Source of the DNA: Candidatus Woesearchaeota archaeon
GTDB taxonomy: Archaea > Nanobdellota > Nanobdellia > Woesearchaeales > 0-14-0-80-44-23
Assembly (NCBI GenBank): GCA_038874135.1
Contig: JAVZCZ010000001.1
Location: 623,219 to 687,218, forward strand
DNA: 64,000 nucleotides
Direction: 5' to 3'
The notes beneath the pieces are model-generated. The model was not told the DNA's origin. It searched no databases and saw nothing but the letters and a program-made list of their open reading frames with translations. A program made the position numbers and the translations under genes. Shown here in pieces: positions 43,245 to 58,547 of this stretch (positions are counted from its first letter, which is position 1; every line of letters starts with the position of its first letter).

Positions 43245-43907
43245 TTATGATGAGATAAAGTCTATTTGCACCTGCACCTGTTTTTCTCCAGGAACTGCGT
43301 CAAACGGCACGGTTACCTTTGCAGCTACCCAGAGTTCGTTGTTAGTTCCATATGTGAAGGCTGTTCCAGTAGCGTTGGCGCAAAGGTTGCTCTTGGCAGT
43401 TGTTAGAGGTGTCCAGCTGGTTGTCTGGAAAGCGTCGTTACAGCCATCGTTTGCAGTTGGGTTTATAGCTGCAAACCACGCCTGGCTCCAGCCTGTTGAA
43501 ACAGAGTTTATCCAAGCTGTAGCGTTTGCAGAAGCATTTATTGTAAGGTTTCCATTAGTGTTTCCAGTATTTCTAACTATTATGTACCTCTTTGTCGGGT
43601 CTGATATGGCGTTTGCCCAGTCGCCCTGGCAGTCGGTGTCAGGTCTGGCTCCTGAAGAGAGGTTGCTTTCCATTGTGCAGTTTGTATTAACTAAAGCGTA
43701 TCCGCTTCCGAAGTCAATCGCCTGCGTTACGGTTATTGCTGAGCTGCTCGTAACAGTAAGGTTAACCTTTGCAGATCCAGATGTTGCGAATCCGGTTATT
43801 CCGAACTTCGAAAGCCGGTTTAGGCTGATTAGTGTTCCGCCTATTGAAACTATTATGGCAATCACGAGAAGGGTTGCCAATGTTTTATTGCTTATTTCTT
43901 CTGCCAT
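43245..43907 (-). CDS. Secreted protein with conserved N-terminal signal-anchor
   Basis: 220 aa. The N-terminus MAEEISNKTLATLLVIAIIVSIGGTLISL is related to the N-terminus of the adjacent small gene. The rest is Thr/Ser/Asn-rich. Confidence 0.5.
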   Translation of the reverse strand: MAEEISNKTLATLLVIAIIVSIGGTLISLNRLSKFGITGFATSGSAKVNLTVTSSSAITVTQAIDFGSGYALVNTNCTMESNLSSGARPDTDCQGDWANAISDPTKRYIIVRNTGNTNGNLTINASANATAWINSVSTGWSQAWFAAINPTANDGCNDAFQTTSWTPLTTAKSNLCANATGTAFTYGTNNELWVAAKVTVPFDAVPGEKQVQVQIDFISS

Positions 43908-43929
43908 TTTATTCCTCCCATCATTCCCA

Positions 43930-44150
43930 TCATTCTGGTTTTATAACATTTAAGCTTATTCTCGCCTGTCCGCTGGGCGGCTGCGAGGGCTTTATGACTG
44001 TGAGTGATATTTTTGAAGTTGTCGGGGCTGGCTGCGCGCTCTGTTTTTGCGTATTTGTCGCACTGAGTATTGTCCAAGTTCCAAGTATTGAAACAATAAT
44101 CGTTAGAACAAGCAGCACAGCTACAGTGTTTTTTGAGACTTCAACCATTT
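43930..44150 (-). CDS. Small secreted protein with the same N-terminal signal-anchor family
   Basis: The track ORF 43930-44340 is trimmed to the internal MVEVSKNTVAVLLVLTIIVSILGTWTIL (73 aa). The upstream part of the ORF overlaps the RNase P RNA and is rejected. Confidence 0.35.
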
Positions 44151-44257
44151 TCAACCTCTCCAGAGATGATTTAAGCTGCTTTAAATCATTTCCATTTTTA
44201 AATATTTCTATTCTGCGGTGGTTATAGAATGGCAAAATTTTTAATTTAGCACAGCTA

Positions 44258-44572
44258 TCATTTAAAAGGTAGGGCAGATACCCGGCTTTCGGAGCAGATG
44301 CTCTGAGGAAAGTCCGCCCACCATACAGAGCTGCACGCACAAGCGTGGCCTGGAAACAGGCGGCAACCGCTCAGAAACGAGACCTCCTGAGCCAAGGATG
44401 AAGCGTGAGAGTGCCCTGGCGACAGGGCTCAGTTAACCCGCAGACGTTCCTCAGGGAAGGGTGAAACGGCGAGCCCCAGCGGTGCAAGTCCGTTTTTGGA
44501 CGCTAAGTAGAATGCTGGGAGGGGCATTTCGCAAGATGCCTGACAGAAGGCGGCTTATTTCTGCCCTACAAT
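44258..44572 (+). ncRNA. rnpB: RNase P RNA (archaeal type A-like)
   Basis: Contains the universally conserved CR-I-like GAGGAAAGTCCGCCCACC and the CR-V-like ACAGAAGGCGGCTTA. The terminal P1 pairing is GGGCAGA...TCTGCCC. The length of about 310 nt is typical. Confidence 0.7.
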
Positions 44573-45594: not shown

Positions 45595-46905
45595 CTAATC
45601 TAATTCAATCTTCTTCCCACTCTGCCTTTTTATTGTTTCATATGCACTCATTATTAGCTCGCGAACCTTCTTCCTTTCACTTGGAGAAAGCTTCTCATAA
45701 TCCATCCTTAAACGCTGATAAATCTTAACTGCTCTTTCAACATTTCTCAACTCAGCTTCCCTGATAGCCCTCTTAGCCCTCAGCTTAATGATAGAAGTTT
45801 TCAAGCCAGCCGACCTAAAAACAAAAATCAGAATAATTGAAGCAACAAAAAATACCACAATAGTTAAAAGCCTCTTCTGCCGTAAGGCGTCCTCACTCTC
45901 AGCATAGGTAATTCCCGACATAGCACTAAGACGGAATTCTCGCATTTCAGAAACATTATCATAAAAGGCATAAACCTTAAAGGTATACCTCCCCTCGGGA
46001 ATTTCTGAACAATCCCAAAAGAATTCAACATCTGCGTCTTTAAATATCGTAAGTGAATTTGCCCTTATTTCAGAAATTAGACTACCTTTAGAATTCACAA
46101 CCTCAATTTTCGGCTCAAACTCAACACCCCTATTCCAATTTGAAACATAACTCACAACAATCCTATTTATCTCTCCAGGCTTGAATCCTGGAACTTCTAC
46201 CCTAATCGGAACTACTCTCACCTTCCCAATTCGGATAAGGGAATCATACCCTCGCTCTACACCATCGTAATACAGCCACACCCTTGCAAGATACTCACCC
46301 GAAAGATTACCACGGCTCCTACTTATCGTCTTCTCACTTCCAGAAGCAACTCCGCCAATACTCTGATTAATCCTGAAAACCTCAGAATCGCCATCATAAA
46401 GAACAAGAGAAGCATATGCATCCCTAATGTCACTCAGTCCAAGGTTTCTAACTCTTAAAGCAATCTCCCTCTCACTAGAGTTTATCATCGCAAAGAGAAA
46501 CTTATCAGACTTCACCACAGTATAAATCTGAGCACTTACAGATACACCGGCATTTATACCTTCTCCTTCAGAAGGCCTGGCTGAAAACACCACTTCAGTA
46601 ACATAAGTTCCAGGGCTCAAGCCAGAAGGTAGTTTTACTTCAACATTAACAGGATAGTATTCCTGCTCTGCACTTATCTTGAAAGAATAGTTGGATATTT
46701 TAAAATATTCTGCAAGCTCACCGCTCACAATAGCAGAAACATAAACCGGTACTCTATCCTTATTATACAATCTGAACTGCAAGTTATTTACAATGCCCGG
46801 CTCGTATTCCAGAGTATAATATGCTGGACCAACACCCAATCTCAATGCTTGCACAATTGAAGCTAATGTAAGCACTCCTAAAATCCAGATTAAAATTTTT
46901 TTCAT
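45595..46905 (-). CDS. Cell-surface protein with C-terminal TM anchor and cytoplasmic coiled-coil tail
   Basis: 446 aa with a signal peptide, an ectodomain paralogous to 42004-43194, the TM LLTIVVFFVASIILIFVF and a basic coiled-coil tail. It is the last gene of the HTH-plus-giant-protein operon. Confidence 0.55.
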   Translation of the reverse strand: MKKILIWILGVLTLASIVQALRLGVGPAYYTLEYEPGIVNNLQFRLYNKDRVPVYVSAIVSGELAEYFKISNYSFKISAEQEYYPVNVEVKLPSGLSPGTYVTEVVFSARPSEGEGINAGVSVSAQIYTVVKSDKFLFAMINSSEREIALRVRNLGLSDIRDAYASLVLYDGDSEVFRINQSIGGVASGSEKTISRSRGNLSGEYLARVWLYYDGVERGYDSLIRIGKVRVVPIRVEVPGFKPGEINRIVVSYVSNWNRGVEFEPKIEVVNSKGSLISEIRANSLTIFKDADVEFFWDCSEIPEGRYTFKVYAFYDNVSEMREFRLSAMSGITYAESEDALRQKRLLTIVVFFVASIILIFVFRSAGLKTSIIKLRAKRAIREAELRNVERAVKIYQRLRMDYEKLSPSERKKVRELIMSAYETIKRQSGKKIELD

Positions 46906-46906
46906 C

Positions 46907-49900
46907 TCAACTCGCCATAATATAGATCGTAGCATTCTTAGTAGCAGGAGGCTCCGCGCTTGGAACTTCCACTCTTATGTCAATCCTCGCTTCATCCGCA
47001 TAGTCCAGATATCCTAAATCAATAATTGAAAGAGTTGAAATGTTAGTCATGTTAGTCCAGGATGTCCGCGAGTTTCTCCAGTCAAAAGCATAATATTCTC
47101 CGCTAATATTTCCTATCCTGAACTGATAATAGCTAGTGTTAAGAGGCACTGAACTCCAGAGGGCTGTAGAGTTTATACTTATATTCACAGGAATGTTACC
47201 ATTATTTCTAATTTTTATAGGCTGAGGACTATTATCTAAGGTGTCTTCTATTGCTCCAGGATTTAAATTTCCGAAAGAGACATTTGCAACATAGATTTCA
47301 ATATCCCTATAAGGCTCTATTGAGAAGTTCCAAGTATCACTCCACTCTCCATAGTCAAAGCTGTCAAACGCCCTAACCTTCCAGAAGTACGAAGTTGAGA
47401 GGTTAAGCTGGCCCGGATAGGTGTAGCTTGTTAAATTCGTATCAGTGATTATTAATGGAGAGGAGAAGTCAGCATTGTCATCTACCACGAGAGAATATGT
47501 TATCTTATCTGATTCTGGGTCAATGGCGGCATTCCAGACGAAAGTCATATTTCGGTCATGCTCTGTTCCGCTGTTATTCAATGGGCTTGTAAGGTTAACT
47601 TTTGAAGGAGGAGTGTTGTTACTCCTAATTTCAATGTATGTGGGTAGGGTTTGATTGTATCCCGTTTGAGAATAATTCAGAGATTCAAATATTACAAAGA
47701 ATTCGTACTTGCTACCCTTAGTGCCAGTTGCGTTTACATACCAAGTTACATTGCAGCTCTGCTGGTCATAAATACTGCCCAAGCAGCTTAAATCGCTGCT
47801 CAGCAGAGGATTTGAAGTGTTGGTCCAGAACGGGATTGTTCCAGGAATAGTTGAAATTATCCCTTTTGAGGATAACACTAAGAACTCGTGACTGGCGTAC
47901 CCGCCGATGTTTCCAGCATTGTCAAACGCCTTAACATAGAATGTGTGATTCCCCGACGGAAGCGTTTCGTTCATGTAATACAAACTAGTTGTATTTCTAC
48001 CACCCACTTCAGGCGCACTATCATCAATAGCGTAGTAATAGCCAGCCACCCCGCTCACATCATCATATGAAGCACTCCAGTTAAATGTTCTGTTGCTCAC
48101 AAAGCTCCACCCTTCAATTGAGTCCGTAAGATTCTGAGGTATGGATGGCGGAGTCCAGTCAATGCTGAAATTTACTGAAATAGTGTTTGAATTATTAACA
48201 TTATCATACGCTCTCAGCTCAACAACACAGCCGTACTGCATCTCAACATTACAGTCCATTCCTAAGCCAACGCTTATTCCTAAAACATCGTTGCAGTTCC
48301 TTACAGTCCAGCCCTTAGTTTGAGTTCCATTGCTCAAAACCCTGTAGTAGCATGCCTTGAGCCCTGAAACAGAATCGGAATCTGAGATGTTAATCTGGAA
48401 GTTAGAATTCTTCCAGGAGCCCGCAGCTGGAGAGTTAAGAACTATTTGAGGTGCAGTTACATCTCTAACTAAGGTAAACTGAGTTGTATTCATATTTCCA
48501 GCATTATCATAACAGGTTATTGTGCCGCTTCCATTAAAGGTGCTGGAAGTGCTAAAATTATAAGCGCCAACATCCTGAGAGGCATATGGTGAAGAAGTAT
48601 CATTCCCATACCCGGCAATTGTAGAAAGCTGAGGGAAATTTACAGCCGCAATCCCGTTGGAATCACCAGCACTCACAGAAATGTTAATGCTTCCAGAGCC
48701 AGCAGGGCTATAATATGTAGTGTTTCCAACAACATATGCATAATCAGAAGTTTTAGAAATTTCTGTAATCACGCAATAAGGTATTGAATAGTCTATTTTG
48801 ATTGTTTTGCTTTGGGTTGTTTCTGTGTTTCCGGCGTTGTCTGTGCTGTTGTATCTTATGTATGTTGTTCCCTGGGTGTTTATTTGTATTGGTGCGGTGT
48901 ATGTTGTGGTTGGCGTGCAGGTGTTTGTTGTGTCTGTGCAGTATTGTGTGAGTGAGCATCCTGAGCCTGAGGCGTCGTTGCATGTTAGTGTTACGTTTAC
49001 GTATGGGCTTTTTGTCCAGGTGTTGAAGGTGTAGCTTGCTCCGGTGCTGTTTACTGCTGTTGCCGTGGTTGTCGGCGGTGTTGTGTCTATTTTGATTGTT
49101 TTGCTTTGGGTTGTTTCTGTGTTTCCGGCGTTGTCTGTGCTGTTGTATCTTATGTATGTTGTTCCCTGGGTGTTTATTTGTATTGGTGCGGTGTATGTTG
49201 TGGTTGGCGTGCAGGTGTTTGTTGTGTCTGTGCAGTATTGTGTCAACGCGCAGGTGCCCCCTCCGCTGTCTGTGCAGTTCAAAGTAACATTTACATAAAG
49301 GCTTTTAGTCCAAGTATTGAAAGTATAAATTGTTGAAGAGTTAGTTATTGCAGTAGCATTAGTAAAGGGAGCATTTGCATCATAAGTAAATGTTGTGTTT
49401 ATAACTGCTGAAGTTTTTATCTGTCCACAAGCGTCTGCAGAATTTTCTAATGCTCTAAGGTATATCGTGCAGGTGCCTGTAACTGTGCAGGCTGTAGATG
49501 CTACGAACTGGCAGCTGGCTTGGCTGCCGCTGCTTACTTGTGTTGAGTTGCACAGGGTCTGTGTGCATGCTGAGTCCTTACAAACTTGAAGTTTCATTGC
49601 GTCAGCATTCGGGTCTGTAATTGTGGCTGTGGCGTTTACTATAGTGTTTGGTCCCGCGCAGCTGGGCGTTGCTGATGGACTTGCAGGAGTGTTTGGTGGG
49701 GCGTTTGTTGAAGTGCTCGTCCACCCAGTGGCTGTACAGCTTACTCCAGTATAGCACGTCTGGCTTGTGGAATTGTAACAAAATCCTGAGTTGCAGTTTC
49801 CTCCAGTGCATGTGCATAGTGTTGTATTTACTACTGTACTTGTGCTTCCACTTGCCCCTCCAGAGGTGCATGCTACATTATAACAGCAGGTGTCTATGTT

Positions 49901-52900
49901 GCCTGAGTTGCAGGTACTGCTGTCTGCTCCCTTGCAGTAAGTGTTAGGGCTTGCGCACATGGTTGTGCTGCTTGGACATCCCGTTCCAGTGTAGTAGCAG
50001 GTTGTTAGAGTCCAGCACTTTCCACTTGGTCCTGTTCCCGCACAGGTGCTTACATATTCTATTGGGTATCTGCTAGTTGTACTGCTGTATGCTGTTTCTA
50101 CACTCTGATTGTTTCTAGCCTTTACCCTGTAGGTGTATTGTGAGAAGCAGTTTAGTCCAGAATCTATGTAACTCATCGCAGTTGTCCATCCAGAGTCTGT
50201 TGCTCCAGCATTGTATGATGTTTCGTTAGCATAGTATTGAGGGTTGTTATATGCACATACTGCTGTCCAGCTTACATTTAAACTTGTTGTGCTTGTTGGA
50301 GTTACTGTCGGCGCACTGGGTCCATTTACGAGCGTGTATGTACAGCTTGTTGCTGAGGCTGTTCCAATATTATTTAAAGAATCTCTCGTTTGGGCGGTGT
50401 AGCAGTATTGCGTGTTACAATTTAACCCAGTATCAGCCCATGTTGGGCTGGTCTGCCATCCGCTGCTAGCTGTTGTTGGACTTGTTCTATTTATTTGATA
50501 GTATACCGTAGCTGAGCATCCCGTATCTGTAGCTGTTGTGGCTGTTATGTTTATTTGTGAGCTTGAGATTGGTGTTGTGCTGCTTATTGTTGCCGGGTTC
50601 GGAGTAGGCGAGCTGACATCAATGCTCAACACAGAGCAAGAACTCCAACTTCCCCAATTATTGTAAACATCCTTCGCTTTGACCCTCCACGAATATGTGC
50701 CTGTTGATAGAGCGCTGGGAGTCCAGCTATTTGAGGAAGGCGTTCCTGTTTGAAGAGCAGTTCCGCTGCAGTCAGAAGTTGAGTAAATCTCAACCTGATA
50801 GCCAGCAACAGAAGAACAGCCAACATCTGAAGGAGCACTCCAAGACAAAGTGGGAGTTGAAGAGCCATTACAATTACCAGAACTTGGCAGCAAGCCCGTA
50901 GGAGCATTAGGACCTGCAAAGTCAATGTAATAAATGTTTGAACTCTTCAAAGATTCAGCATTGCTAACATTATCTATTGAATAAGTGCATATCTTCTTAG
51001 CGCAGTAGCTACCAGGCGGGCACCCTACCAAAAATTGTGAAGAGTACAAACTCATCCCACTTATATCGCACGCTGTTCCAGAATCAACAATCTTATACCA
51101 GGTTGAACTGCATCCAGAACCAGAACCGTCACTGCAAGAAAGTGTGACTGAAACGTTTGAATTGTTACAAGCTTGTCCATTAGGATTAATAGTTGTTGTT
51201 GGAGCCTGTGCATCAATATAAATTGTTGAACTCTTAGTAGTTTCAACATTAAAAGCATTATCAGTGCTGTTATACCTAACATAACCCACGCACACACTTC
51301 CCGCAGCGCACTGGAATAAGATGGGAGTGCTAAGCGAAGATGGAGTGCAGGAGTTTGTCCAGTCACCACAAGCGTGAGTAGCCAAGCAGCCACTCAAAGC
51401 ATCCGTACAGTTAAAACCATTCACACTAACATTCAAACTAGTCCAAGTGCCAATAATATAACTGCTTGAATCAGACTTAGTAATATTAGAAATACTTGTT
51501 GTTGGAGCTGTTGTGTCACTTCCAACAATTAGTGTTCTCATCTCTGTTTGATTTACATTTCCAGCCAAATCTTGAGCATAAGCAATGTAGGTATATGTTC
51601 CCGTGGGGAGTAGTGTAAAGTTGTGATATAATCTATAAATCCCTGCATTGTAGGAAGTAGCTATCTCCTCAGCACTAAGCGCCCTATTGTAAATGCGGAC
51701 TTCATCAATTGTGCCTTTTAAGTAATAAGTTGAATATTTACCAATAATTAAATTTAAATTGTTCACACCTATATTGCCAGTTGCTGATAAAGCTGATCCA
51801 GTAGGAGTGCCATCTAACCATAATCTAACTGCACTTCCATTATAAACCATCGCAACATGATGCCATGAATTGGGAGATACTGAACCACCGTCAGACACTT
51901 CTTTCCAACCACTTATATTAACTCCTCCTTTTAAGGTTCCACTGCTGGTGACATATAACCAATACACAGAATCTGCTGCTAAATTTCCTTTTTCAATTAT
52001 CATTTGTGTAGTTGTTGGAGTTGCTGCGAGGTTGATCCATGCTTCAAGAGTAATAGCATTTGTAATGTTTAAACTTTTATCAGTTGGGACGGTTATATAG
52101 TCATCTATCCCGTCAAATGTTAATGCGCTTCCGAATTTTCCGGCTGTCGTAATATTTGGGCAGCTAGTTCCAGAACATGTTGCATTGTTGCCGTAAATGC
52201 TCCAATCTTTAAAGAATGTGCTGTTTTCTTCACTCTCTTGATTGAATCTCCACCACCCAACCAGGCTGCTATTCCAATCAATAAGTCCTGTTGTGTTGTA
52301 AGCGTCACTTATACTAACATTTACGAAACTCCAATTCTTGTATGTAAATGTTCCATTCGCATCAGTTTGTCCTTGAAATGAAATAGCAGGTTTCACATTA
52401 TCTATTGTAATAATTCTTGTTTCGCTTTGTCCTGCGTTTGCTACTGAGTCGTTTGCCCAGCCGTAATAGGAATAGGTTCCCTGTGTTAGGTTTGTTATGT
52501 TGTTGTAGAATCTCCATTCTGTTGAGCTGTATTTTGCAAATTCTGACTGGTAGTGCATTAGTATTTCTTGTGGAGATAGTGCTCGTTTGTAAATGCGGAC
52601 TTCATCTATTGATCCATTAAAGAAGTAGGAGGAGTTCGTTAATGTTCCTATTTTTAGTGTGTCTGTTGTTGCGTAGGGTGTTGATGTTGCACTGGTGTAA
52701 GCTAGAAAACCACTTTTGTTTTGCCCATTTACATATAACTCAAGGTTGTCATTCCCTTTAATAATTCCTACAACGTGTACCCACTGATTTTTTGGAAAGT
52801 CTGTAGTTCTGAATTCATCCCACCCAGCTCCATCTCCGTATGCAACGCTTAGCATCGCGCTATTGTTCATAATTCCTAAGAAATAGTTTTTCTGAGCCCA

Positions 52901-53839
52901 AGTGCCAGGACCTTTTTGAACAAAAGCAGTGCCTCCACCTAGTTGAGTTGTATTTATGTACACCCAAGCTTCTATAGTGATTGGAAATGTAGTTATTTGA
53001 AGAGATGTGCTGTGAGGTATCATAACCCAGTCATCTACTCCGTCAAATGTAATTCCCTTTCCAAAACGTCCTGTAGTATATTGAGGGGGCCTATTTCCAT
53101 CTGCATTACTAGTATTTGCATCATACATTGTTCCGTTGTTTCCATATTTTGATATGTCTACTGCTGTTGTGGCGCTGTCTCCTATTGCAGAATTGTTGTT
53201 GAAGTTTAATGCTAGTACTAGTGAATCGTCGTAGAAGGTGTAGTTTGTGCCGTTCCAGTTGAATTTGAAGGAGTCTAGTCCTGCTCCGCTTTCTACTATT
53301 GTTATATTTATTTGTGTGTAGTTATTGGGGGTGTATGTGTTGTTTGCTGGGGTTGGATAATAAAATGTTAATGTAGGAGCTGTTATGTCTCTGTATACGT
53401 AAAGTGTTGTTGTTCCTGTTGAGCCCCAGTAGGAGTAGCAGGTTATTGTGGCTGAGCTGCTGTAAGTGCTGCTCGTTGTCCAAGTGTAGGTCCAACTGTA
53501 GGGATAGCTTGTATCACTTCCTCCAGTGGATACTGTGCTTGGAAAACTCACACTTGATATGCCGTTAGGATCATTAGTGCTTGCAACCACATTTACTGTG
53601 AATGTTCCTCCTGCTATTGTGTTGTAATATTCGTATGGGGCTGAAGCATATTGGTATTGGGGGTTTGTTCCTTCGGTTATTGATTGTATTGAACATGTTA
53701 CTGTGTAAGCAAATGCTTTGAAGCCGTAGGCTTTTCCGTCTTCTTTAGGATTAACTCCGTATATTAGGAAGGTTATGGTGAGTATCAGCGCTATTATTTC
53801 CAGCGTTTTTCTCATTCCGGGTTGTATTCTCGTTTTCAT
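46907..53839 (-). CDS. Giant (2310 aa) secreted cell-surface protein with two LamG (concanavalin A-like) domains and Thr/Ser/Cys-rich repeats
   Basis: N-terminal signal/TM. Two LamG_3-like blocks (FDGVDDWVMIPHS ... GSIDEVRIYKRALSPQEI and FDGIDDYITVPTD ... GTIDEVRIYNRALSAEEI). Long Thr/Ser-rich Ig/FN3-like repeats, including two near-identical 98-aa tandem units. Confidence 0.8.
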   Translation of the reverse strand: MKTRIQPGMRKTLEIIALILTITFLIYGVNPKEDGKAYGFKAFAYTVTCSIQSITEGTNPQYQYASAPYEYYNTIAGGTFTVNVVASTNDPNGISSVSFPSTVSTGGSDTSYPYSWTYTWTTSSTYSSSATITCYSYWGSTGTTTLYVYRDITAPTLTFYYPTPANNTYTPNNYTQINITIVESGAGLDSFKFNWNGTNYTFYDDSLVLALNFNNNSAIGDSATTAVDISKYGNNGTMYDANTSNADGNRPPQYTTGRFGKGITFDGVDDWVMIPHSTSLQITTFPITIEAWVYINTTQLGGGTAFVQKGPGTWAQKNYFLGIMNNSAMLSVAYGDGAGWDEFRTTDFPKNQWVHVVGIIKGNDNLELYVNGQNKSGFLAYTSATSTPYATTDTLKIGTLTNSSYFFNGSIDEVRIYKRALSPQEILMHYQSEFAKYSSTEWRFYNNITNLTQGTYSYYGWANDSVANAGQSETRIITIDNVKPAISFQGQTDANGTFTYKNWSFVNVSISDAYNTTGLIDWNSSLVGWWRFNQESEENSTFFKDWSIYGNNATCSGTSCPNITTAGKFGSALTFDGIDDYITVPTDKSLNITNAITLEAWINLAATPTTTQMIIEKGNLAADSVYWLYVTSSGTLKGGVNISGWKEVSDGGSVSPNSWHHVAMVYNGSAVRLWLDGTPTGSALSATGNIGVNNLNLIIGKYSTYYLKGTIDEVRIYNRALSAEEIATSYNAGIYRLYHNFTLLPTGTYTYIAYAQDLAGNVNQTEMRTLIVGSDTTAPTTSISNITKSDSSSYIIGTWTSLNVSVNGFNCTDALSGCLATHACGDWTNSCTPSSLSTPILFQCAAGSVCVGYVRYNSTDNAFNVETTKSSTIYIDAQAPTTTINPNGQACNNSNVSVTLSCSDGSGSGCSSTWYKIVDSGTACDISGMSLYSSQFLVGCPPGSYCAKKICTYSIDNVSNAESLKSSNIYYIDFAGPNAPTGLLPSSGNCNGSSTPTLSWSAPSDVGCSSVAGYQVEIYSTSDCSGTALQTGTPSSNSWTPSALSTGTYSWRVKAKDVYNNWGSWSSCSVLSIDVSSPTPNPATISSTTPISSSQINITATTATDTGCSATVYYQINRTSPTTASSGWQTSPTWADTGLNCNTQYCYTAQTRDSLNNIGTASATSCTYTLVNGPSAPTVTPTSTTSLNVSWTAVCAYNNPQYYANETSYNAGATDSGWTTAMSYIDSGLNCFSQYTYRVKARNNQSVETAYSSTTSRYPIEYVSTCAGTGPSGKCWTLTTCYYTGTGCPSSTTMCASPNTYCKGADSSTCNSGNIDTCCYNVACTSGGASGSTSTVVNTTLCTCTGGNCNSGFCYNSTSQTCYTGVSCTATGWTSTSTNAPPNTPASPSATPSCAGPNTIVNATATITDPNADAMKLQVCKDSACTQTLCNSTQVSSGSQASCQFVASTACTVTGTCTIYLRALENSADACGQIKTSAVINTTFTYDANAPFTNATAITNSSTIYTFNTWTKSLYVNVTLNCTDSGGGTCALTQYCTDTTNTCTPTTTYTAPIQINTQGTTYIRYNSTDNAGNTETTQSKTIKIDTTPPTTTATAVNSTGASYTFNTWTKSPYVNVTLTCNDASGSGCSLTQYCTDTTNTCTPTTTYTAPIQINTQGTTYIRYNSTDNAGNTETTQSKTIKIDYSIPYCVITEISKTSDYAYVVGNTTYYSPAGSGSINISVSAGDSNGIAAVNFPQLSTIAGYGNDTSSPYASQDVGAYNFSTSSTFNGSGTITCYDNAGNMNTTQFTLVRDVTAPQIVLNSPAAGSWKNSNFQINISDSDSVSGLKACYYRVLSNGTQTKGWTVRNCNDVLGISVGLGMDCNVEMQYGCVVELRAYDNVNNSNTISVNFSIDWTPPSIPQNLTDSIEGWSFVSNRTFNWSASYDDVSGVAGYYYAIDDSAPEVGGRNTTSLYYMNETLPSGNHTFYVKAFDNAGNIGGYASHEFLVLSSKGIISTIPGTIPFWTNTSNPLLSSDLSCLGSIYDQQSCNVTWYVNATGTKGSKYEFFVIFESLNYSQTGYNQTLPTYIEIRSNNTPPSKVNLTSPLNNSGTEHDRNMTFVWNAAIDPESDKITYSLVVDDNADFSSPLIITDTNLTSYTYPGQLNLSTSYFWKVRAFDSFDYGEWSDTWNFSIEPYRDIEIYVANVSFGNLNPGAIEDTLDNSPQPIKIRNNGNIPVNISINSTALWSSVPLNTSYYQFRIGNISGEYYAFDWRNSRTSWTNMTNISTLSIIDLGYLDYADEARIDIRVEVPSAEPPATKNATIYIMAS
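48790..49380. repeat. Intragenic tandem repeat, two units of about 294 bp with about 165 bp of perfect identity
   Basis: The string tctattttgattgttttgctttgggttgtttctgtgtttccggcgttgtctgtgctgttgtatcttatgtatgttgttccctgggtgtttatttgtattggtgcggtgtatgttgtggttggcgtgcaggtgtttgttgtgtctgtgcagtattgtgt occurs twice. It encodes the repeated YCTDTTNTCTPTTTYTAPIQINTQGTTYIRYNSTDNAGNTETTQSKTIKID. Confidence 0.8.
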
Positions 53840-54330
53840 TCTTTCTCTTTTGCCTTATTATAGGCTGTCCAGACCGTTCTGTAGTTTCTTTTCAGGATTT
53901 TTGCAATTTGGCTGAGCCGCATATTTTTTTCATCCTTTAGGAACTTTACAGCAGATTCTAGTATTCCCATGTTTCTGTTTTCAAATGCTCTTAGGGGGAT
54001 GAGTATTCCTGTTTTTTCTGCTGGTTTTTTTCTTTCAGTCTTTTTTATTGTAGTCCAGATTGTCTTGTAGCTTCTTCCAAGTTTTTTTGCTATCTCTTTT
54101 GTTGAGTAGCCCTTTGCTTTTAGTTCGGTGCATATTGCTCCCAATGGTGCTCTTTTCTGAAATATTCCTGCATCTATGAAGTTTCTGCCTTCTTCTGAAA
54201 TTCTTAACAAATCCTCCTTCTGAATTCCATATCTCCTGCTCAGTTCTTCTATGCTAGTGCTGATTTTTTGCAGCATGTCTTCTTCCCTGCTCAATATCTT
54301 CTCCATCCACTCAGCATTTTCAAATTCCAT
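53836..54330 (-). CDS. Small double-HTH protein (two sigma-70 region 4/LuxR-like helix-turn-helix repeats), putative regulator
   Basis: 164 aa. HTH1 is GYSTKEIAKKLGRSYKTIWTTIKK and HTH2 is MRLSQIAKILKRNYRTVWTAYNKAKEK. There is a 4-nt overlap with the giant LamG gene. Confidence 0.55.
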   Translation of the reverse strand: MEFENAEWMEKILSREEDMLQKISTSIEELSRRYGIQKEDLLRISEEGRNFIDAGIFQKRAPLGAICTELKAKGYSTKEIAKKLGRSYKTIWTTIKKTERKKPAEKTGILIPLRAFENRNMGILESAVKFLKDEKNMRLSQIAKILKRNYRTVWTAYNKAKEKE

Positions 54331-54396
54331 TTTTCCTATTTAATAAGTATTTTATTTATTAATTATTTAAATATTTTCCTATTTAATAAGTATTTT
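54331..54396. promoter_or_regulatory. Two 23-bp direct repeats (ttttcctatttaataagtatttt) 43 bp apart in the upstream region of the double-HTH gene
   Basis: Perfect copies at about 54331-54353 and 54374-54396. They are AT-rich and sit where a BRE/TATA and an operator would be expected. Confidence 0.45.
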
Positions 54397-54397
54397 T

Positions 54398-57300
54398 TTA
54401 TTTTTCATCAGGACTTACTGAGATAAGATAGTTCACCTCCTCTTGATTATAATCTGTAACTATGACGCCGTTCCAGTCTACCCTAAACTTTCTGCCGGTT
54501 TCATTATATGATTGTGAGTTCAGATATTCTTCTATTTTCCTTTTAATCGAGTCTTCTAGCATCTTGTGTAATTCTAAGGGGTCTAATGTTGCATTGAGAT
54601 CACCACAAGGACCTCCAACGCACCTCACGCCTGCCTTGAATGTGAAGAACTTCTGATACGGCACTGTTGTGTTTCCATAAGGCTCGTATGGCCACACATA
54701 GTATGGTTCTAGGTGTCCGTATGCTGAGTTATTGAACATGAAGCTGTATATGTAGGTGCCTATATCTCCTAATGAGTTATTTGCGTATATTGTTATTGTA
54801 TGAGTTTGTTGGTCTGTAAGGTTTGTTGTGTTTATGTAGTATGGAGCGTTTAGTGTGTTGTTTGTTCCTCCGTCTATGTTGTACCATGAGGCGTTGGCTC
54901 CGCTTATTGTGAATTTGAGTAGGGTGCCTGTGTGTATTATTGAGTTGTTTACTGGGCTTTCCAGGGTTACTATTGGCAGTCCCGCCATGTTGTATGCATA
55001 TGCTGTTTTGTTTCCAAACCTGAATTGCTGAGTGTGTTTTCCTCCTGTTAGCACATTTACTGTGTAATATGATGTTGTTGAGCAGTTGTAGTTTTCAACC
55101 ATTATTGAGATGACTGGTATGCTCAACTCTGAATCCATTAAGGTAGTGTAATTTATGTAGCTCAGTTCTCCATCCGAAGTGCAGCCTAGTGTTGAATTTT
55201 CAATTTTGCCATCTGTGCATGAGGCATTGCTGATTACTATTATCCTGTTCTTGTTTATTATATTGTTTCCACATTTTAGCTCTATAAATCTAAGATCGTC
55301 TTCTGTTTCGTTGTTGTCATTTGGCTCTTCCCTGTAAGTTGTGCCGTTGTATGCTGTTATTATTAAGTTGGCAGTTCCTGTAGTGTTGAAGGCAGTTGTC
55401 CAGTTTCCTCCTATCATTGGGAAGCTCTGTACTGTTATTATTATTAGGTCTATCTGTAATTCAAATTCTTCTTCACTCAGCAGAGGGACTGTCCAGACTA
55501 CCTTTTCAACCCTTCCGTTGCCGTTCAGGTCTATTAACTGGACGTTGAATCTTTCATCATTTGTTACATCTTGTTTTGTTCCATTGACTATCCAGAAGAG
55601 CTTCACTTGCTCTGGCAGCGACTCCGGTATTGAGCTATAGGCAGTTGTATTCTCATAGTGTATGTAAGACTCTGATCTTATTGTTACTTTTTTCTTCCAA
55701 GTGTTCTGGTCTTTTGTTGGTTTTTCTTCAATCTTTTCAGGAGCTGGAGTTGTGAATCTTATAAGGTATTGTGTTTCTTCATCTTTTTCTGGAATTATTA
55801 GTTTTATTGCTTCATCTATCTTTGCAGGTGGCGTTACCTCTTTTGCTACCTGTGGAATTTCAGTAAGTGTTTGTGCTGAAGTTCCATTCTCCTCCTCTTT
55901 TTCTTGTATCACAACATTTTCTGATGTCTCTGCAGTACCGTTTTCCGTTGTTATTTCTTGAGTAACAGTTTGGTTTTCTGTTGCTTGCAATACACTTCCT
56001 GTTGTTATATTCTCCTGACTTGCATTTTCTTCCAAGATTAGTGTTGTTGTATTTTCTTCACTGTACACTGCAAATCCTGTTATCCTACTAAGCTCTGCAA
56101 AAATCTTATATACGAAGCTGACAACTCTTTCTGCAAAGTCGGTTATGCTCCTAGTGGTTTTAATTGCTGCTCCCGTTATTGTCTGGACTGAACTCTGAAT
56201 TTGTGTTTCTCCCCTGTTGTAGTTTTCAATATTTTCAGTCTTGTTGTCCACGCTTACTAGGGCTTCTGTAACTTGTATGTTTAAGCTTCCGTATCTTTTA
56301 TACACTGTTATGTTCTTGGCATCTTTTGGAAGCACTATATCTATGGTCTGAGTTTCATTGCTTACTTTTCTTAGCGAGATTTTATGCGTCCACTCAACCG
56401 GTTTTCCAATTTCCGCCTTTGACTGTACAAACTCCTGCGATATGATTATTACTCCTTTTTCAAACATCTCAATTATGATTGTAAACCTGCTCTTTATTTC
56501 TCCTGTTGAAGCTTCAAGTATTACATAACCGAGGCCTGTGCTTTGGTCTTCCTTCCAGATGTTCAGAATTTCTCCTTTTGTTTCTGCTCTAATATTTGCA
56601 GACTCTATTACTGAGTATGTTATGTTTTGGTCTTTTCCGCCCGTGCAGTATTCTCTGAGGTTTATGGTTGTGTAGTTTTCCGTGAGGATTATTGGATTGA
56701 AAATGCATTCTATTGCAGTTTTTTGCTGAGGTAGTACTTCCACTTCTACTTCGTTGCTATATGTTATTTCGTTGGTGTTTGAAGCTGCAAACTTTATGGT
56801 GTAGTATCCTGATTCTTCTGCTCTTATTTCTGCGATTTCTTTTTCAATTGTTATTGTAAGACCATCAGCCCCTATTGCGATATAACTTAGTTCCCTTCCA
56901 TTTTCTTCAGTGAAGTATTCTGATAGGTTTATTATTGCACTTTCGTTTATCTCTAGTGTTATTGTTGGAATTTCTTTTGTTAGCACAGGCGCTTTTTCTG
57001 TTATGTTCTGAGTTACTTCTTCGCTTATGTTTTGGGTTATGTTTTCTGTTATGTTTTGAGGTATGTTTTCAATAGTCTGTTCGCTTGTTTTGTTTTCTTG
57101 CGGAATTTCTTCGCTTATGTTTTGGGTTATGTTTTCTGTTATGTTGGTGCTTGTTTCTGTTATGCCAGTTTCATTGCTTTCTGATGTTATGTTTTCTGAA
57201 GTTTGGTTGGTTTCGTTTGTTTCAATTATGGTGATGTTTTCTTGTGTTGTAACTTCTGTAGCGTTTTGAGTGGTTATGTTTTCCCAGCTGCTGAGGTTTT

Positions 57301-57781
57301 GGGTAGTTTCTGGTATTGTTAGATTGCCAGTTCCGTTTTCCGTCTCATTGTAGGTTGCACTTTCGTTTTCTAATATTGCAAGTCCTGTTATCCTTGTTCT
57401 TAAGATTCCTGTTGCATACAGCAGTCCAGTTATTCCTACGGCTATTAATAACACTGCTATTATCGGTGCATAATTGCGCGTTTCTCTTTCCTCTTCAATT
57501 TTTCTTATTTTTTCTTCTAATTCACTGAGTTTCTGTTGCTGCTGAGTTATCTCTTGCAGTTTTTCGTCTTTCCAATTCTCAGGCGTTTTTCCTTCAAAGA
57601 TTCTTGCTATTTCTCTGGTGTACTCTTCTAAGCTATACTCATCCTTCAGATAGGCGATGTAGAGCTGTTTTCTGGTCGCGTCTGTTATTTCTATCTTCTT
57701 CCTAAGCAGGTCTATGGTTGTGGCTGTCTTTTCTATTTCTGCCCTAATCTTCACTATCCTTTCACGCTTGGATTTATTCAT
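54398..57781 (-). CDS. Type II membrane protein (1127 aa) with cytoplasmic coiled-coil, single TM and a huge sequon-rich ectodomain
   Basis: N-terminal coiled coil (about 110 aa), then the TM IIAVLLIAVGITGLLYATGIL, then dozens of N-x-T/S sequons. These include the tandem ENITQNISEE(I/V) repeats, which are mirrored by 40-bp nucleotide direct repeats at about 57018 and 57108. Confidence 0.7.
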   Translation of the reverse strand: MNKSKRERIVKIRAEIEKTATTIDLLRKKIEITDATRKQLYIAYLKDEYSLEEYTREIARIFEGKTPENWKDEKLQEITQQQQKLSELEEKIRKIEEERETRNYAPIIAVLLIAVGITGLLYATGILRTRITGLAILENESATYNETENGTGNLTIPETTQNLSSWENITTQNATEVTTQENITIIETNETNQTSENITSESNETGITETSTNITENITQNISEEIPQENKTSEQTIENIPQNITENITQNISEEVTQNITEKAPVLTKEIPTITLEINESAIINLSEYFTEENGRELSYIAIGADGLTITIEKEIAEIRAEESGYYTIKFAASNTNEITYSNEVEVEVLPQQKTAIECIFNPIILTENYTTINLREYCTGGKDQNITYSVIESANIRAETKGEILNIWKEDQSTGLGYVILEASTGEIKSRFTIIIEMFEKGVIIISQEFVQSKAEIGKPVEWTHKISLRKVSNETQTIDIVLPKDAKNITVYKRYGSLNIQVTEALVSVDNKTENIENYNRGETQIQSSVQTITGAAIKTTRSITDFAERVVSFVYKIFAELSRITGFAVYSEENTTTLILEENASQENITTGSVLQATENQTVTQEITTENGTAETSENVVIQEKEEENGTSAQTLTEIPQVAKEVTPPAKIDEAIKLIIPEKDEETQYLIRFTTPAPEKIEEKPTKDQNTWKKKVTIRSESYIHYENTTAYSSIPESLPEQVKLFWIVNGTKQDVTNDERFNVQLIDLNGNGRVEKVVWTVPLLSEEEFELQIDLIIITVQSFPMIGGNWTTAFNTTGTANLIITAYNGTTYREEPNDNNETEDDLRFIELKCGNNIINKNRIIVISNASCTDGKIENSTLGCTSDGELSYINYTTLMDSELSIPVISIMVENYNCSTTSYYTVNVLTGGKHTQQFRFGNKTAYAYNMAGLPIVTLESPVNNSIIHTGTLLKFTISGANASWYNIDGGTNNTLNAPYYINTTNLTDQQTHTITIYANNSLGDIGTYIYSFMFNNSAYGHLEPYYVWPYEPYGNTTVPYQKFFTFKAGVRCVGGPCGDLNATLDPLELHKMLEDSIKRKIEEYLNSQSYNETGRKFRVDWNGVIVTDYNQEEVNYLISVSPDEK

Positions 57782-58361
57782 TTGACAGTTTCTTTTCAGC
57801 TCTTTTGGCTATTGTCCAGATTGTGCGCGGATCCCTTTTGAGTGTGGATGCAATTTGGCTCAGTTTGAGCCCTTTTCCTCTGAGATGATGCACTATTGCC
57901 TCTAGGACGGAGAGCTGCCTTGAGGCGATGATTGAGATTGGAATCTTATTTTCAGAAGCGGCATCCAATTGTTCAGGCATTTTGGAGCTCGCATTTTTGT
58001 AGGTGCTCCAGATTGTCCTGGGGTTTCTGTTGAGAATTTTTGCAATTTTGCTGTAAGAGTACTTCTTGTTCTCTACTAGATATTTTACTATACTTTCGAA
58101 AGGAGATATCTTTGTGTTAAAGATTGAATCTGGAAAATTTTCAGAGCTCTCTTCTGTTGGTTCTATGCTTTTTAGAAGTGTTAAAAGTATTTCGGAGGAT
58201 AGCTCTTCTGTTTTCTTCTGTATTATTCTTGTTATGATTTCGTTAAGCGCGCTTTGAAGCTTCTTACTCTTTAGGCTTTCATCTCCTTGCTTTTCTAAGA
58301 ATTCCTTATTTCTCAAGTATTCTTCGCGCGCGATTTTAAACCACTCTACCAAAAGCCGCAA
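57774..58361 (-). CDS. Small double-HTH protein, paralog of 53836-54330
   Basis: 195 aa. HTH1 is YSYSKIAKILNRNPRTIWSTYKNA and HTH2 is GLKLSQIASTLKRDPRTIWTIAKRAEKK. There is an 8-nt overlap with the 1127-aa gene. Confidence 0.55.
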   Translation of the reverse strand: MRLLVEWFKIAREEYLRNKEFLEKQGDESLKSKKLQSALNEIITRIIQKKTEELSSEILLTLLKSIEPTEESSENFPDSIFNTKISPFESIVKYLVENKKYSYSKIAKILNRNPRTIWSTYKNASSKMPEQLDAASENKIPISIIASRQLSVLEAIVHHLRGKGLKLSQIASTLKRDPRTIWTIAKRAEKKLSNE

Positions 58362-58387
58362 AAGTGCTACTAATATATTGATTTACT

Positions 58388-58502
58388 CATTATGTAAGAT
58401 TATTTATATATAAATATTTTGAATTTTATTATTTTTTACTTATTTTGTAAGATTATTTATTACTTATTATGTAAGTATTATTACTTATTATGTAAGTATT
58501 AT
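58388..58502. promoter_or_regulatory. Four copies of a 21-bp AT-rich direct repeat (consensus cttattatgtaag(a/t)ttattt) in the divergent promoter between the double-HTH gene and pheS
   Basis: Copies at about 58388, 58438, 58461 and 58482. The last two are perfect tandem acttattatgtaagtattatt. They share a TAAG(T/A)(A/T)TT core with the repeats at 54331-54396. Confidence 0.5.
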
Positions 58503-58547
58503 TTTTTGTGCAAAGATTTATATAGATTTTTCTTTTCCAATTTTGAG

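Follow-up and report, generated by a model that had tools for sequence, protein, structure and literature searches.

Tandem helix-turn-helix proteins coupled or fused to giant surface proteins in Woesearchaeota-type archaea, and the palindromic candidate operator of their genes

Helix-turn-helix (HTH) proteins of the LuxR, sigma-r4 (sigma-70 region 4), Tfx and HTH_10 types have already been catalogued in archaea (PMC5413776). An archaeal protein made of tandem imperfect HTH repeats, Cbp2, has a solved structure and binds repeated DNA elements (PMC3597662), and Castelle et al. reported in 2021 that a 'sigma-70' family, fam00359, is prevalent in Woesearchaeota, with no anti-sigma partner and by an unclear mechanism (PMC8204110). 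The locus described here lies in a stretch of 64,000 nucleotides (nt) from a Candidatus Woesearchaeota archaeon (assembly GCA_038874135.1, contig JAVZCZ010000001.1, positions 623,219 to 687,218), called the window below. Two open reading frames (ORFs) of its minus strand, ORF A (53836..54330) and ORF B (57774..58361), each encode a small protein with two HTH units and stand directly before the gene of a large surface or membrane protein. The original prediction, made from the letters of the window, considered such proteins unusual since archaea lack sigma factors; the three reports cited above take this argument away, as HTH proteins of this kind, 'sigma-70' genes and a tandem-HTH protein were all known from archaea. 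What would be new here is a lineage-specific family of tandem r4/LuxR-like HTH proteins that is coupled or fused to surface proteins and possesses a conserved candidate operator. No description of the tandem-unit family, of its coupling or fusion to giant surface proteins or of the promoter element was found in the searchable literature, which is incomplete.

ORF A encodes 164 amino acids (aa; its coordinates include the stop codon). A region of three helices (residues 1-50) is followed by HTH unit 1 (54031..54180, residues ~51-100), made of a short strand, a short helix and three helices, with the turn and recognition helix GRSYKTIWTTIKKTERK, then by the basic linker KKTERKKPAEKTG and by HTH unit 2 (53842..54003, residues ~110-163; turn and recognition helix KRNYRTVWTAYNKAKEK). 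ORF B, 195 aa long if read from the TTG at 58361, begins with a poorly modelled helical region and carries its two units at 57981..58139 (unit 1, residues ~75-127; NRNPRTIWSTYKNASSK) and 57783..57947 (unit 2, residues ~139-193; KRDPRTIWTIAKRAEKK), all four units lying on the minus strand. Both proteins end directly after unit 2, and their N-termini amount, in the AlphaFold2 models, to merely 50-75 residues of helices. They share 37% identity across the C-terminal ~120 residues (E 2e-20); an alignment is also obtained between unit 2 of ORF A and unit 1 of ORF B. ORF A is identical in sequence to a database protein, P0001, while another one, P0004 (180 aa), is 99% identical to ORF B; because of the length of P0004, the start of ORF B is uncertain and may be an internal TTG ~15 codons further in, which would give ~180 aa.

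It had been predicted that each protein contains two copies of one sequence pattern. Taken literally, this pattern matches unit 1 of ORF A only (STKEIAKKLGRSYKTIWTTIKK); in the relaxed form IA..L.R[SND].[KR]T[IV]W[TS], it is found in all four units, and the six-frame translation of the window holds no further match (composition alone would give 5e-7 matches). The claim of two copies per protein thus stands for the relaxed form and not for the literal one. The further claim that 57774..58361 repeats the architecture of ORF A is borne out by the two stretches that Pfam models match in ORF B and by its AlphaFold2 model.

Family models agree on the nature of the units. HTH_23 (PF13384) scores 41.3 bits in ORF A and 35.9 bits in ORF B (cut-off 24.6) and Sigma70_r4_2 scores 37.1 and 27.1 bits (cut-off 25.7), both models in two stretches per protein, and HTH_38, a transposase-type HTH model, scores 30.2 and 31.8 bits (cut-off 27). 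GerE (PF00196) misses its threshold in ORF A (17.3 bits against 23.5) and is unlisted for ORF B. Catalytic-domain families of Pfam are matched by neither protein, and Sigma70_r2 gives no match in either of them even at E<=10. The NCBIfam models yield weak sub-threshold matches alone (ECF sigma, that is extracytoplasmic function sigma factors, RcsB/BglJ, IS630 and Tfx models): TIGR02937 scores 16.4 and 18.8 bits in ORF A and ORF B (cut-off 42.9), NF033545 (IS630) 20.4 bits (cut-off 100) and NF033546 (IS21) 14.3 bits (cut-off 160). With no region 2 and with two r4-like units in the chain, neither ORF A nor ORF B is a sigma factor.

The structural models point in the same direction. That of ORF A, built by AlphaFold2 from an alignment of 25 sequences, has a mean pLDDT (predicted local distance difference test) of 88.6 and a pTM (predicted template modelling score) of 0.70, and displays three N-terminal helices, then two copies of a strand, a short helix and three helices. 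In the model of ORF B, both units reach a pLDDT >90 (from about residue 81) and the N-terminus is poorly defined. Foldseek superposes single units on the DNA-binding domain of RcsB (root-mean-square deviation of 0.4-2.0 Å over 38-41 residues, 39-44% identity, probability 1.00) and on region 4 of sigma-E (2h27_D; 0.5 Å over 39 residues), and HMMER also aligns a single unit to RcsB 1p4w. The units of ORF A and ORF B are therefore LuxR / sigma-70 r4 / HTH_23-like HTH units, as had been proposed from the sequence. The original prediction had also named in advance what would speak against it: a match to the TrmB or Lrp-type families was not obtained in either protein even at E<=10 (Pfam), which rules out a winged helix of that type, and the units are modelled as three-helix HTH.

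At the level of the whole chain, Foldseek found no strong match in the PDB, the best one being 2lvs, the nuclear magnetic resonance structure of Cbp2. This similarity is marginal (phmmer E 0.0023, with both units aligned; profile E 0.068; Foldseek E 0.024, with a probability of 0.96 and a TM-score of 0.25-0.35). In the same way, a profile search of PDB sequences matches RcsB, sigma-H and Cbp2 marginally (E>=0.03).

ORF A and ORF B have many relatives. Word-seeded searches gave the first relatives (3 and 22 proteins, 150-300 aa), and a profile search of 1.84 billion representatives (clusters at 50% identity) retrieves 2,276 of them at E<=1e-3 and 1,466 at E<=1e-30. The aligned repeat unit of the family, IPxSIFxxxLSxLExIVKYLKExxxLxxxEIAxLLNRDxRTIWTxYxRAxKK, is present in two copies per protein (in four copies in P0005) and is preceded by a variable helical region with 'K-x-K-Y-x-L-S-x-x-E-I'; the turn and recognition helix, R-x-x-R-T-I-W, holds the most conserved residues of each unit. 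No dedicated Pfam or NCBIfam model of this family was matched. One homologue carries the JGI name 'sigma24 family protein'.

When each GTDB species was represented by one genome, 213 stretches that encode such proteins were confirmed, and the best 80 loci were used for the locus analyses. Nearly all of these are either titled Woesearchaeota, Nanoarchaeota or Nanoarchaeia or labelled generically or doubtfully; the single contig titled 'Alphaproteobacteria bacterium' (L067) encodes an archaeal/eukaryotic-type primase small subunit (PriS). Neither the profile search nor the best 80 loci gave evidence of bacterial family members or of a recent transfer, and the family is essentially confined to metagenome-assembled genomes (MAGs) of the Woesearchaeota/Nanoarchaeota type. 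A horizontally acquired bacterial-type regulator had also been put forward in the original prediction; a recent acquisition is not supported, given the size of the family on such contigs and the PriS gene of the supposed alphaproteobacterium. The titles of the records are inconsistent, so that the taxon labels of the MAGs bearing the family are unreliable. For example, many family loci (L008, L010, L015, L017, L021 and others) are titled 'uncultured Methanosarcinales archaeon', and P0004 is titled Micrarchaeia while P0001, the protein identical to ORF A, is titled Candidatus Woesearchaeota archaeon.

The comparison with described systems can now be made. The RcsB-type domains of LuxR/FixJ regulators (PDB 5w43, 5o8y, 1p4w) have the same HTH fold and a closely similar scaffold and recognition helix, xEIAkxLnRSxKTIxsxxxxaxxKL. 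However, the family has two to four units per chain instead of one dimerising unit and neither a receiver nor a ligand domain, its hosts are archaeal, its genes are coupled or fused to surface-protein genes, and its GerE score is below the cut-off. The unit also resembles region 4 of ECF sigma factors (2h27 for sigma-E, 3mzy for sigma-H), since it matches Sigma70_r4_2 and superposes on region 4 of sigma-E, and the ECF sigma/anti-sigma operons have a parallel in the position of the family gene, ahead of one that encodes a membrane protein of the single-pass type; unlike these factors, the family lacks region 2 and its r4-like unit is duplicated, and no anti-sigma domain was detected by Pfam in the partners that were scanned. 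Tandem three-helix HTH repeats with a basic linker are common to the models of ORF A and ORF B and to Cbp2/Cbp1 of Crenarchaeota (2lvs; PMC3597662), whereas an additional strand and short helix (IPxSIF motif) and the N-terminal helical region are found in the family, which belongs to another lineage and whose putative sites are promoter palindromes instead of CRISPR repeats. An Rfam scan of the window found no CRISPR-DR family at threshold, and the repeats near ORF A and ORF B form arrays in the promoters, with 2-4 copies each. Lastly, fam00359 of Castelle et al. comes from the same lineage and owes its annotation to the same trigger, matches to sigma-70 region 4 (PMC8204110); it may be the same family as that of ORF A and ORF B.

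The genes of the family are tightly linked to those of surface proteins. Read along its minus strand, the window has ORF B, the gene of a 1127-aa protein, a gap of 67 nt, ORF A, and the genes of a 2310-aa and a 446-aa protein. The 1127-aa membrane protein (54398..57781, minus strand), whose ATG overlaps the stop codon of ORF B by 8 nt, has a cytoplasmic coiled-coil N-terminus of ~100 aa, a transmembrane segment and an ectodomain with NIT-sequon repeats. The ATG of the 2310-aa surface protein (46907..53839, minus strand) overlaps the stop codon of ORF A by 4 nt (ATGA); this protein possesses an N-terminal signal anchor, two Laminin_G_3 domains (Pfam E 3e-55) and immunoglobulin (Ig)-like domains including Big_3_3. 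The third membrane protein, of 446 aa (45595..46935, minus strand), shows in translation a signal peptide, a beta-rich ectodomain, a transmembrane segment and a helical cytoplasmic tail; its ORF overlaps that of the 2310-aa protein by 29 nt and probably belongs to the same operon. No Pfam family matched the 1127-aa protein, its first 100 residues or the 446-aa protein.

Similar arrangements recur in other genomes. For example, L003 has an HTH gene followed by one encoding 1427 aa and a second HTH gene followed by one encoding 2008 aa; L004 has the order 3048 aa, HTH, a 2878-aa LamG protein, HTH, HTH; L005 has an HTH gene and then 1859 aa; and L006 has an HTH gene, 379 aa and 1504 aa. Among the 79 loci that could be analysed for gene context, 74 have an ORF of the same strand that starts within reach of the HTH stop codon, and in ~66 this ORF overlaps the stop codon, typically by 4, 8, 11, 14 or 17 nt. 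The products of these downstream ORFs nearly all start with a transmembrane segment or a signal anchor. In total, the context is conserved in about 70 of the 79 loci.

At least four types of partners recur: (1) proteins with a coiled-coil N-terminus and a transmembrane segment, like the 1127-aa protein; (2) proteins, often giant, with a short N-terminus, a transmembrane segment and 'GPSITGFV.KEFSY'; (3) a ~240-aa secreted 'WKAYVGN' protein; and (4) a ~150-aa protein. Four partners from outside the 'GPSITGFV' type were scanned (L001, L025, L048 and L066), none of which matched a Pfam family at the gathering threshold. A single-pass partner with its N-terminus inside and a cytoplasmic domain of ~100 aa is encoded in the window (by the gene coupled to ORF B), in L010, L042, L054, L055, L078, L085 and L086 and in others; the 2310-aa partner of ORF A has a signal anchor only and no such cytoplasmic domain. 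A protein like the 1127-aa one is also encoded downstream of the family gene of L010.

Several features of the partners deserve mention in their own right. The sequence 'TM + (P)xITG[FLY]', where TM is a transmembrane segment, is common right after the anchor in the partners of L010, L014, L029, L030, L050, L057, L084 and others, and occurs in the 1127-aa protein around residue 130; a second 'ITGF' often follows ~100 residues after the first and bounds a conserved first ectodomain. This motif may be a processing or attachment site. Within the 1127-aa ORF, seven overlapping copies of a tandem repeat with a 12-nt period (56993-57145, minus strand) encode (E/Q)NIT(E/Q)NI(T/S) runs, that is dense N-x-T/S glycosylation sequons, and the ENITENIT runs are longer still in the look-alike of L010. 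The 2310-aa ORF holds a duplicate of 168 nt (48791-48958 and 49085-49252) whose copies lie 294 nt apart; its protein repeat reads '...TTATAVNSTGASYTFNTWTKS.YVNVTL.C.D...TQSKTIKID', and the 98% identity of the copies indicates a very recent internal domain duplication. Proteins of the 446-aa type also adjoin family HTH genes in L066, where one is the directly coupled partner, and in L077 (8520-9722); the protein of L066 has sub-threshold Ig-like Pfam matches only, and that of the window has none. Finally, in the subfamily whose unit 2 reads 'RDERNIW' (L019, L024, L048, L052, L064 and L079), the partner is a protein of ~190-240 aa with a cytoplasmic N-terminus of ~120 residues, and a gene of ~736 aa always lies ~150-200 nt upstream, whose product begins with 'MYELIITEKP...' and resembles a topoisomerase of type IA that has zinc ribbons at its C-terminus.

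In many relatives, the HTH module and the surface protein are a single polypeptide. In a sample of 173 proteins (the 25 first matches and the 150 best profile matches), 18 exceed 420 aa, the longest having 5,919 aa, and in these the module is found at the C-terminus. The junction is the same in 17 of these 18 proteins: Y-S-T-x-x-x-G-x-W-x-I-x-I, then 11-16 mostly hydrophobic residues, then RRKRKKK and the module. The fused modules have two or four HTH units, sometimes with the N-terminal helical region of the free proteins. Fusions are found as uninterrupted ORFs in the genome contigs L062 (3,401 aa), L076 (1,372 aa) and L073, and so are not artefacts of gene calling. When the sequences are compared by eye, several fused giants share the coiled-coil and transmembrane N-terminus of the 1127-aa protein, the N-terminal part of which resembles that of P0028, P0049 and P0088, and the domain that precedes the anchor resembles, also by eye and with no computed alignment, the last domain of the 2310-aa protein. 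Given the positive-inside rule and the lack of a signal peptide in the free forms, the fused module should be cytoplasmic. With this predicted topology, the fused relatives would resemble ToxR, CadC and TcpP, each chain holding a large extracytoplasmic domain together with a DNA-binding domain and a membrane anchor. They differ from these regulators by the C-terminal position of the module (the topology is reversed), by an HTH of the LuxR/r4 type instead of an OmpR-type winged helix and by ectodomains of thousands of residues; the proteins of the window are, moreover, encoded by separate genes.

The promoter regions of ORF A and ORF B both contain repeated palindromic elements. That of ORF A (54331..54399, minus strand) has two identical copies of ATACTTATTAAATAGGAAAA (repeat family D19; 54374-54393 and 54331-54350), 43 nt apart, around the TATA-like TATTTAAATAA, and the second copy abuts the ATG of ORF A. 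These are the only two matches to ATACTTATTAAATAGGAAAA in the window, where 0.01 would be expected; the same variant of the element is also found upstream of family genes in L029, L058, L057, L050 and L018. The promoter region of ORF B (58383..58509, minus strand), divergent from pheS, contains four copies of TACTTACATAATAAGTA (repeat family D6), two perfect and two with 3 mismatches. This element is a perfect 6-bp inverted repeat, TACTTA-N5-TAAGTA, and its proximal copy lies directly after the TATA-like TTTATATATAAATA. If up to 3 mismatches are allowed, the window holds six matches where 0.16 would be expected, and the array of ORF B accounts for four of these, both perfect ones included. The original prediction had pointed out the repeat DNA upstream; the coupling to surface proteins, the fusions and the conservation of the motif across genomes had not been seen there.

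The array of ORF B also bears on the annotation of its divergent neighbour. The TTG start listed for the pheS-like ORF (556 aa) is probably spurious, because its first ~43 codons (58419-58547, plus strand; MNFIIFYLFCKIIYYLLCKYYY...) are the reverse strand of this array. The real start is probably an ATG near 58548 (MASQNLNEII...).

The same element is found before family genes on unrelated contigs. Over 75 loci, the most enriched 7-mer, TACTTAC, occurs in 41 of the 75 regions upstream of family genes and in 84 of 6,450 background windows, and the density of the 9-mer core is 1.29/kb upstream of family genes and 0.032/kb elsewhere. The motif precedes 55-64% of family genes and 3.3% of 823 other genes, and several of the exceptions among the latter are family members missed by a crude filter or divergent neighbours. 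A general promoter element was considered and is ruled out, as the motif is missing from the other promoters of the window and is rare upstream of those 823 genes. Family promoters contain 1-6 copies, the proximal one after a TATA-like box. The spacings of adjacent copies cluster at 20-22, 31-32, 41-46, 51-54, 60-65, 74-76 and 85 nt, with a period of ~10.7 bp (R = 0.56, against a maximum of 0.48 over 2,000 random sets). Fused genes are also preceded by variants of the motif, which end with AAGTATG at the start codon and abut the ATG. Furthermore, the right half-site varies with the protein: TAGGA/TAAGA is paired with RS[NS]KTIWATYH in the first unit, and TAAGTA with RDxRTIW.

With moderate confidence, we consider that ORF A and ORF B are autoregulatory, sequence-specific DNA-binding regulators of surface-protein operons, which would be tethered to the membrane in their fused relatives. 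Each would be a cytoplasmic DNA-binding protein with a short helical N-terminal region and two LuxR/sigma-r4-type units per chain, and each would be the product of the first gene of an operon, ORF B with the gene of the 1127-aa protein and ORF A with those of the 2310-aa and 446-aa proteins. Autoregulation is the most likely mode of action: the protein would bind arrays of the palindromic 17-bp element in its own promoter, TACTTA-N5-TAAGTA for ORF B and the variant TACTTATTAAATAGGA for ORF A. As the proximal copy is placed after the TATA box and ahead of the start codon, binding would control the regulator and the surface protein together. Operators of archaeal repressors usually lie between TATA and the start site. 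A sequence-specific self-regulator is suggested by the conserved LuxR-type recognition helix, the presence of two units per chain, the phased palindromic element of the promoter and the strict operon linkage. The type of fold, the size of the family, the coupling of the genes, the fusions and the specificity, conservation and phasing of the motif are results of the analysis; the binding to the motif, the sign of the regulation and any signalling by the ectodomain are what we infer. In the fused relatives, the module is the C-terminal tail of a giant protein, which would make it a membrane-tethered DNA-binding domain, and the split genes of the window would encode this device as two polypeptides. 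By analogy with ToxR-type regulators, the fusions suggest that a regulator bound to the membrane can be active, and they make signalling from the ectodomain a possibility.

Several observations weigh against this interpretation. The motif overlaps the region from TATA to ATG, and even the ATG itself, so that it could serve this class of genes as a specialised element of the core promoter or of a leaderless start and not as an operator. The core, as defined here, is absent from about 35% of family promoters, and both the correlation between motif and recognition helix and the periodicity of the spacings were computed ignoring the kinship of the loci. The hydrophobic anchor of the fusions, with its 11-16 residues, is short for a membrane-spanning helix, and for this reason the cytoplasmic place of the fused module remains inferred. 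Finally, with partner proteins as diverse as these (at least four types), no single signalling mechanism fits all of them.

A rival explanation would make the regulator and its partner a signalling pair. The HTH protein would be held inactive by the cytoplasmic coiled coil of its partner or, when fused, by a tether from which proteolysis would release it, and contact of the ectodomain with a host or a surface would switch the operon, in analogy with SigI-RsgI, ToxR or Notch. In such an archaeal surface-to-gene pathway, a giant adhesin-like protein would carry a tandem-HTH tail, or would be made together with the regulator from overlapping genes, and engagement of its ectodomain would activate the regulator at TACTTA-N5-TAAGTA arrays. 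The overlap of the HTH gene with that of a single-pass protein having its N-terminus inside and ~100 cytoplasmic residues (in the window, L010 and others), the place of the fused module beside the membrane and the Woesearchaeota 'sigma-70' genes reported by Castelle et al. to have no anti-sigma factors (PMC8204110) are consistent with it. However, most types of partners, including the 2310-aa protein, have few residues before the transmembrane segment and so nothing to sequester a regulator with, and the cytoplasmic domain matches neither an anti-sigma nor another Pfam family. The signalling pair is hence a tentative proposal, and an unlikely one in our view; the same low likelihood is given to the surface-to-gene pathway as a whole.

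The module might also not act on gene expression at all. It could be a cytoplasmic adaptor for the secretion, assembly or anchoring of the partner, or a non-specific tether between DNA and envelope involved in uptake or segregation. Strict coupling and fusion to many types of surface proteins would fit with such roles, as would the basic linkers and tails. Nevertheless, the best conserved residues are those of the R-x-x-R-T-I-W stretch (turn and recognition helix), a pattern shared with LuxR-type domains that bind DNA, and a specific, phased palindromic motif travels with the genes, which makes this explanation rather improbable.

Still less probable is an architectural role like that of Cbp1 and Cbp2, in which the protein would coat repeats, keep the transcription of long AT-rich genes processive and silence cryptic promoters. 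The downstream genes are indeed very long and AT-rich, the best PDB match is Cbp2, with its same plan of two HTH units plus a basic linker (PMC3597662), and Cbp1 serves the transcription of long arrays (PMC10883916). This role is hard to reconcile with a motif that is restricted to promoter regions and missing from the giant genes, with a window in which no CRISPR repeat family was found and with a similarity to Cbp2 that is marginal (E 0.002-0.07).

Two other explanations have a very slight probability. Archaeal RNA polymerase works with TBP and TFB, not with sigma, and the promoters of ORF A and ORF B have TATA-like boxes; together with two to four r4-like units per chain in place of region 2 plus region 4, a Sigma70_r2 model unmatched at E<=10 and TIGR02937 scores of 16-19 bits against 42.9, this speaks against a bacterial-type sigma factor, or a remnant of one, directing the polymerase to promoters, in spite of the Sigma70_r4_2 score above the cut-off, the weak ECF sigma matches in NCBIfam, the name 'sigma24 family protein' and the 'sigma-70' genes reported in Woesearchaeota (PMC8204110). 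A domesticated or degraded HTH of a transposase or mobile element (IS30/ISL3/IS630-type), as suggested in the original prediction, could account for HTH_38 and HTH_23 above the cut-off and for weak HTH_Tnp_ISL3, TnsD, IS630 and IS21 matches, but not for the lack of a catalytic domain, an IS630 score of 20.4 bits against 100, an identity between ORF A and ORF B of 37% only, a position before membrane-protein genes kept across ~70 genomes (a synteny that is conserved rather than mobile) and terminal inverted repeats that were not found flanking ORF A and ORF B.

Elsewhere in the window, Rfam identifies a full-length archaeal RNase P RNA at 44270-44568 (plus strand; 158 bits). It partly overlaps spurious ORF calls (43930-44340 and 43832-44227), and this RNaseP_arch match indicates that the window itself is archaeal.

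Few of the DPANN archaea, to which Woesearchaeota belong, have been cultured, and many of them, according to predictions, live attached to a host cell. The giant surface proteins of these archaea are the foremost candidates for recognising the host and, to our knowledge, nothing is known about the control of these proteins. The family described here gives a handle on this question, with a defined regulator, a candidate operator conserved across dozens of genomes, target operons and natural fusions between regulator and surface protein. The fused forms would represent an apparently undescribed kind of archaeal one-component transmembrane regulator if they indeed bind DNA while tethered to the membrane. 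The annotation is also corrected, as family members are not archaeal sigma factors, and a testable alternative is offered for the puzzle of a 'sigma-70' without anti-sigma factor (PMC8204110): if fam00359 is the same family, its proteins would be tandem r4-like HTH proteins tied to surface-protein genes. Should the surface-to-gene pathway exist, it would explain why anti-sigma factors are missing for these reported genes, its trigger could be host contact by these presumed episymbionts, and it would be an independent, sigma-free counterpart of ECF sigma/anti-sigma systems of the SigI-RsgI kind or of ToxR/Notch-like signalling.

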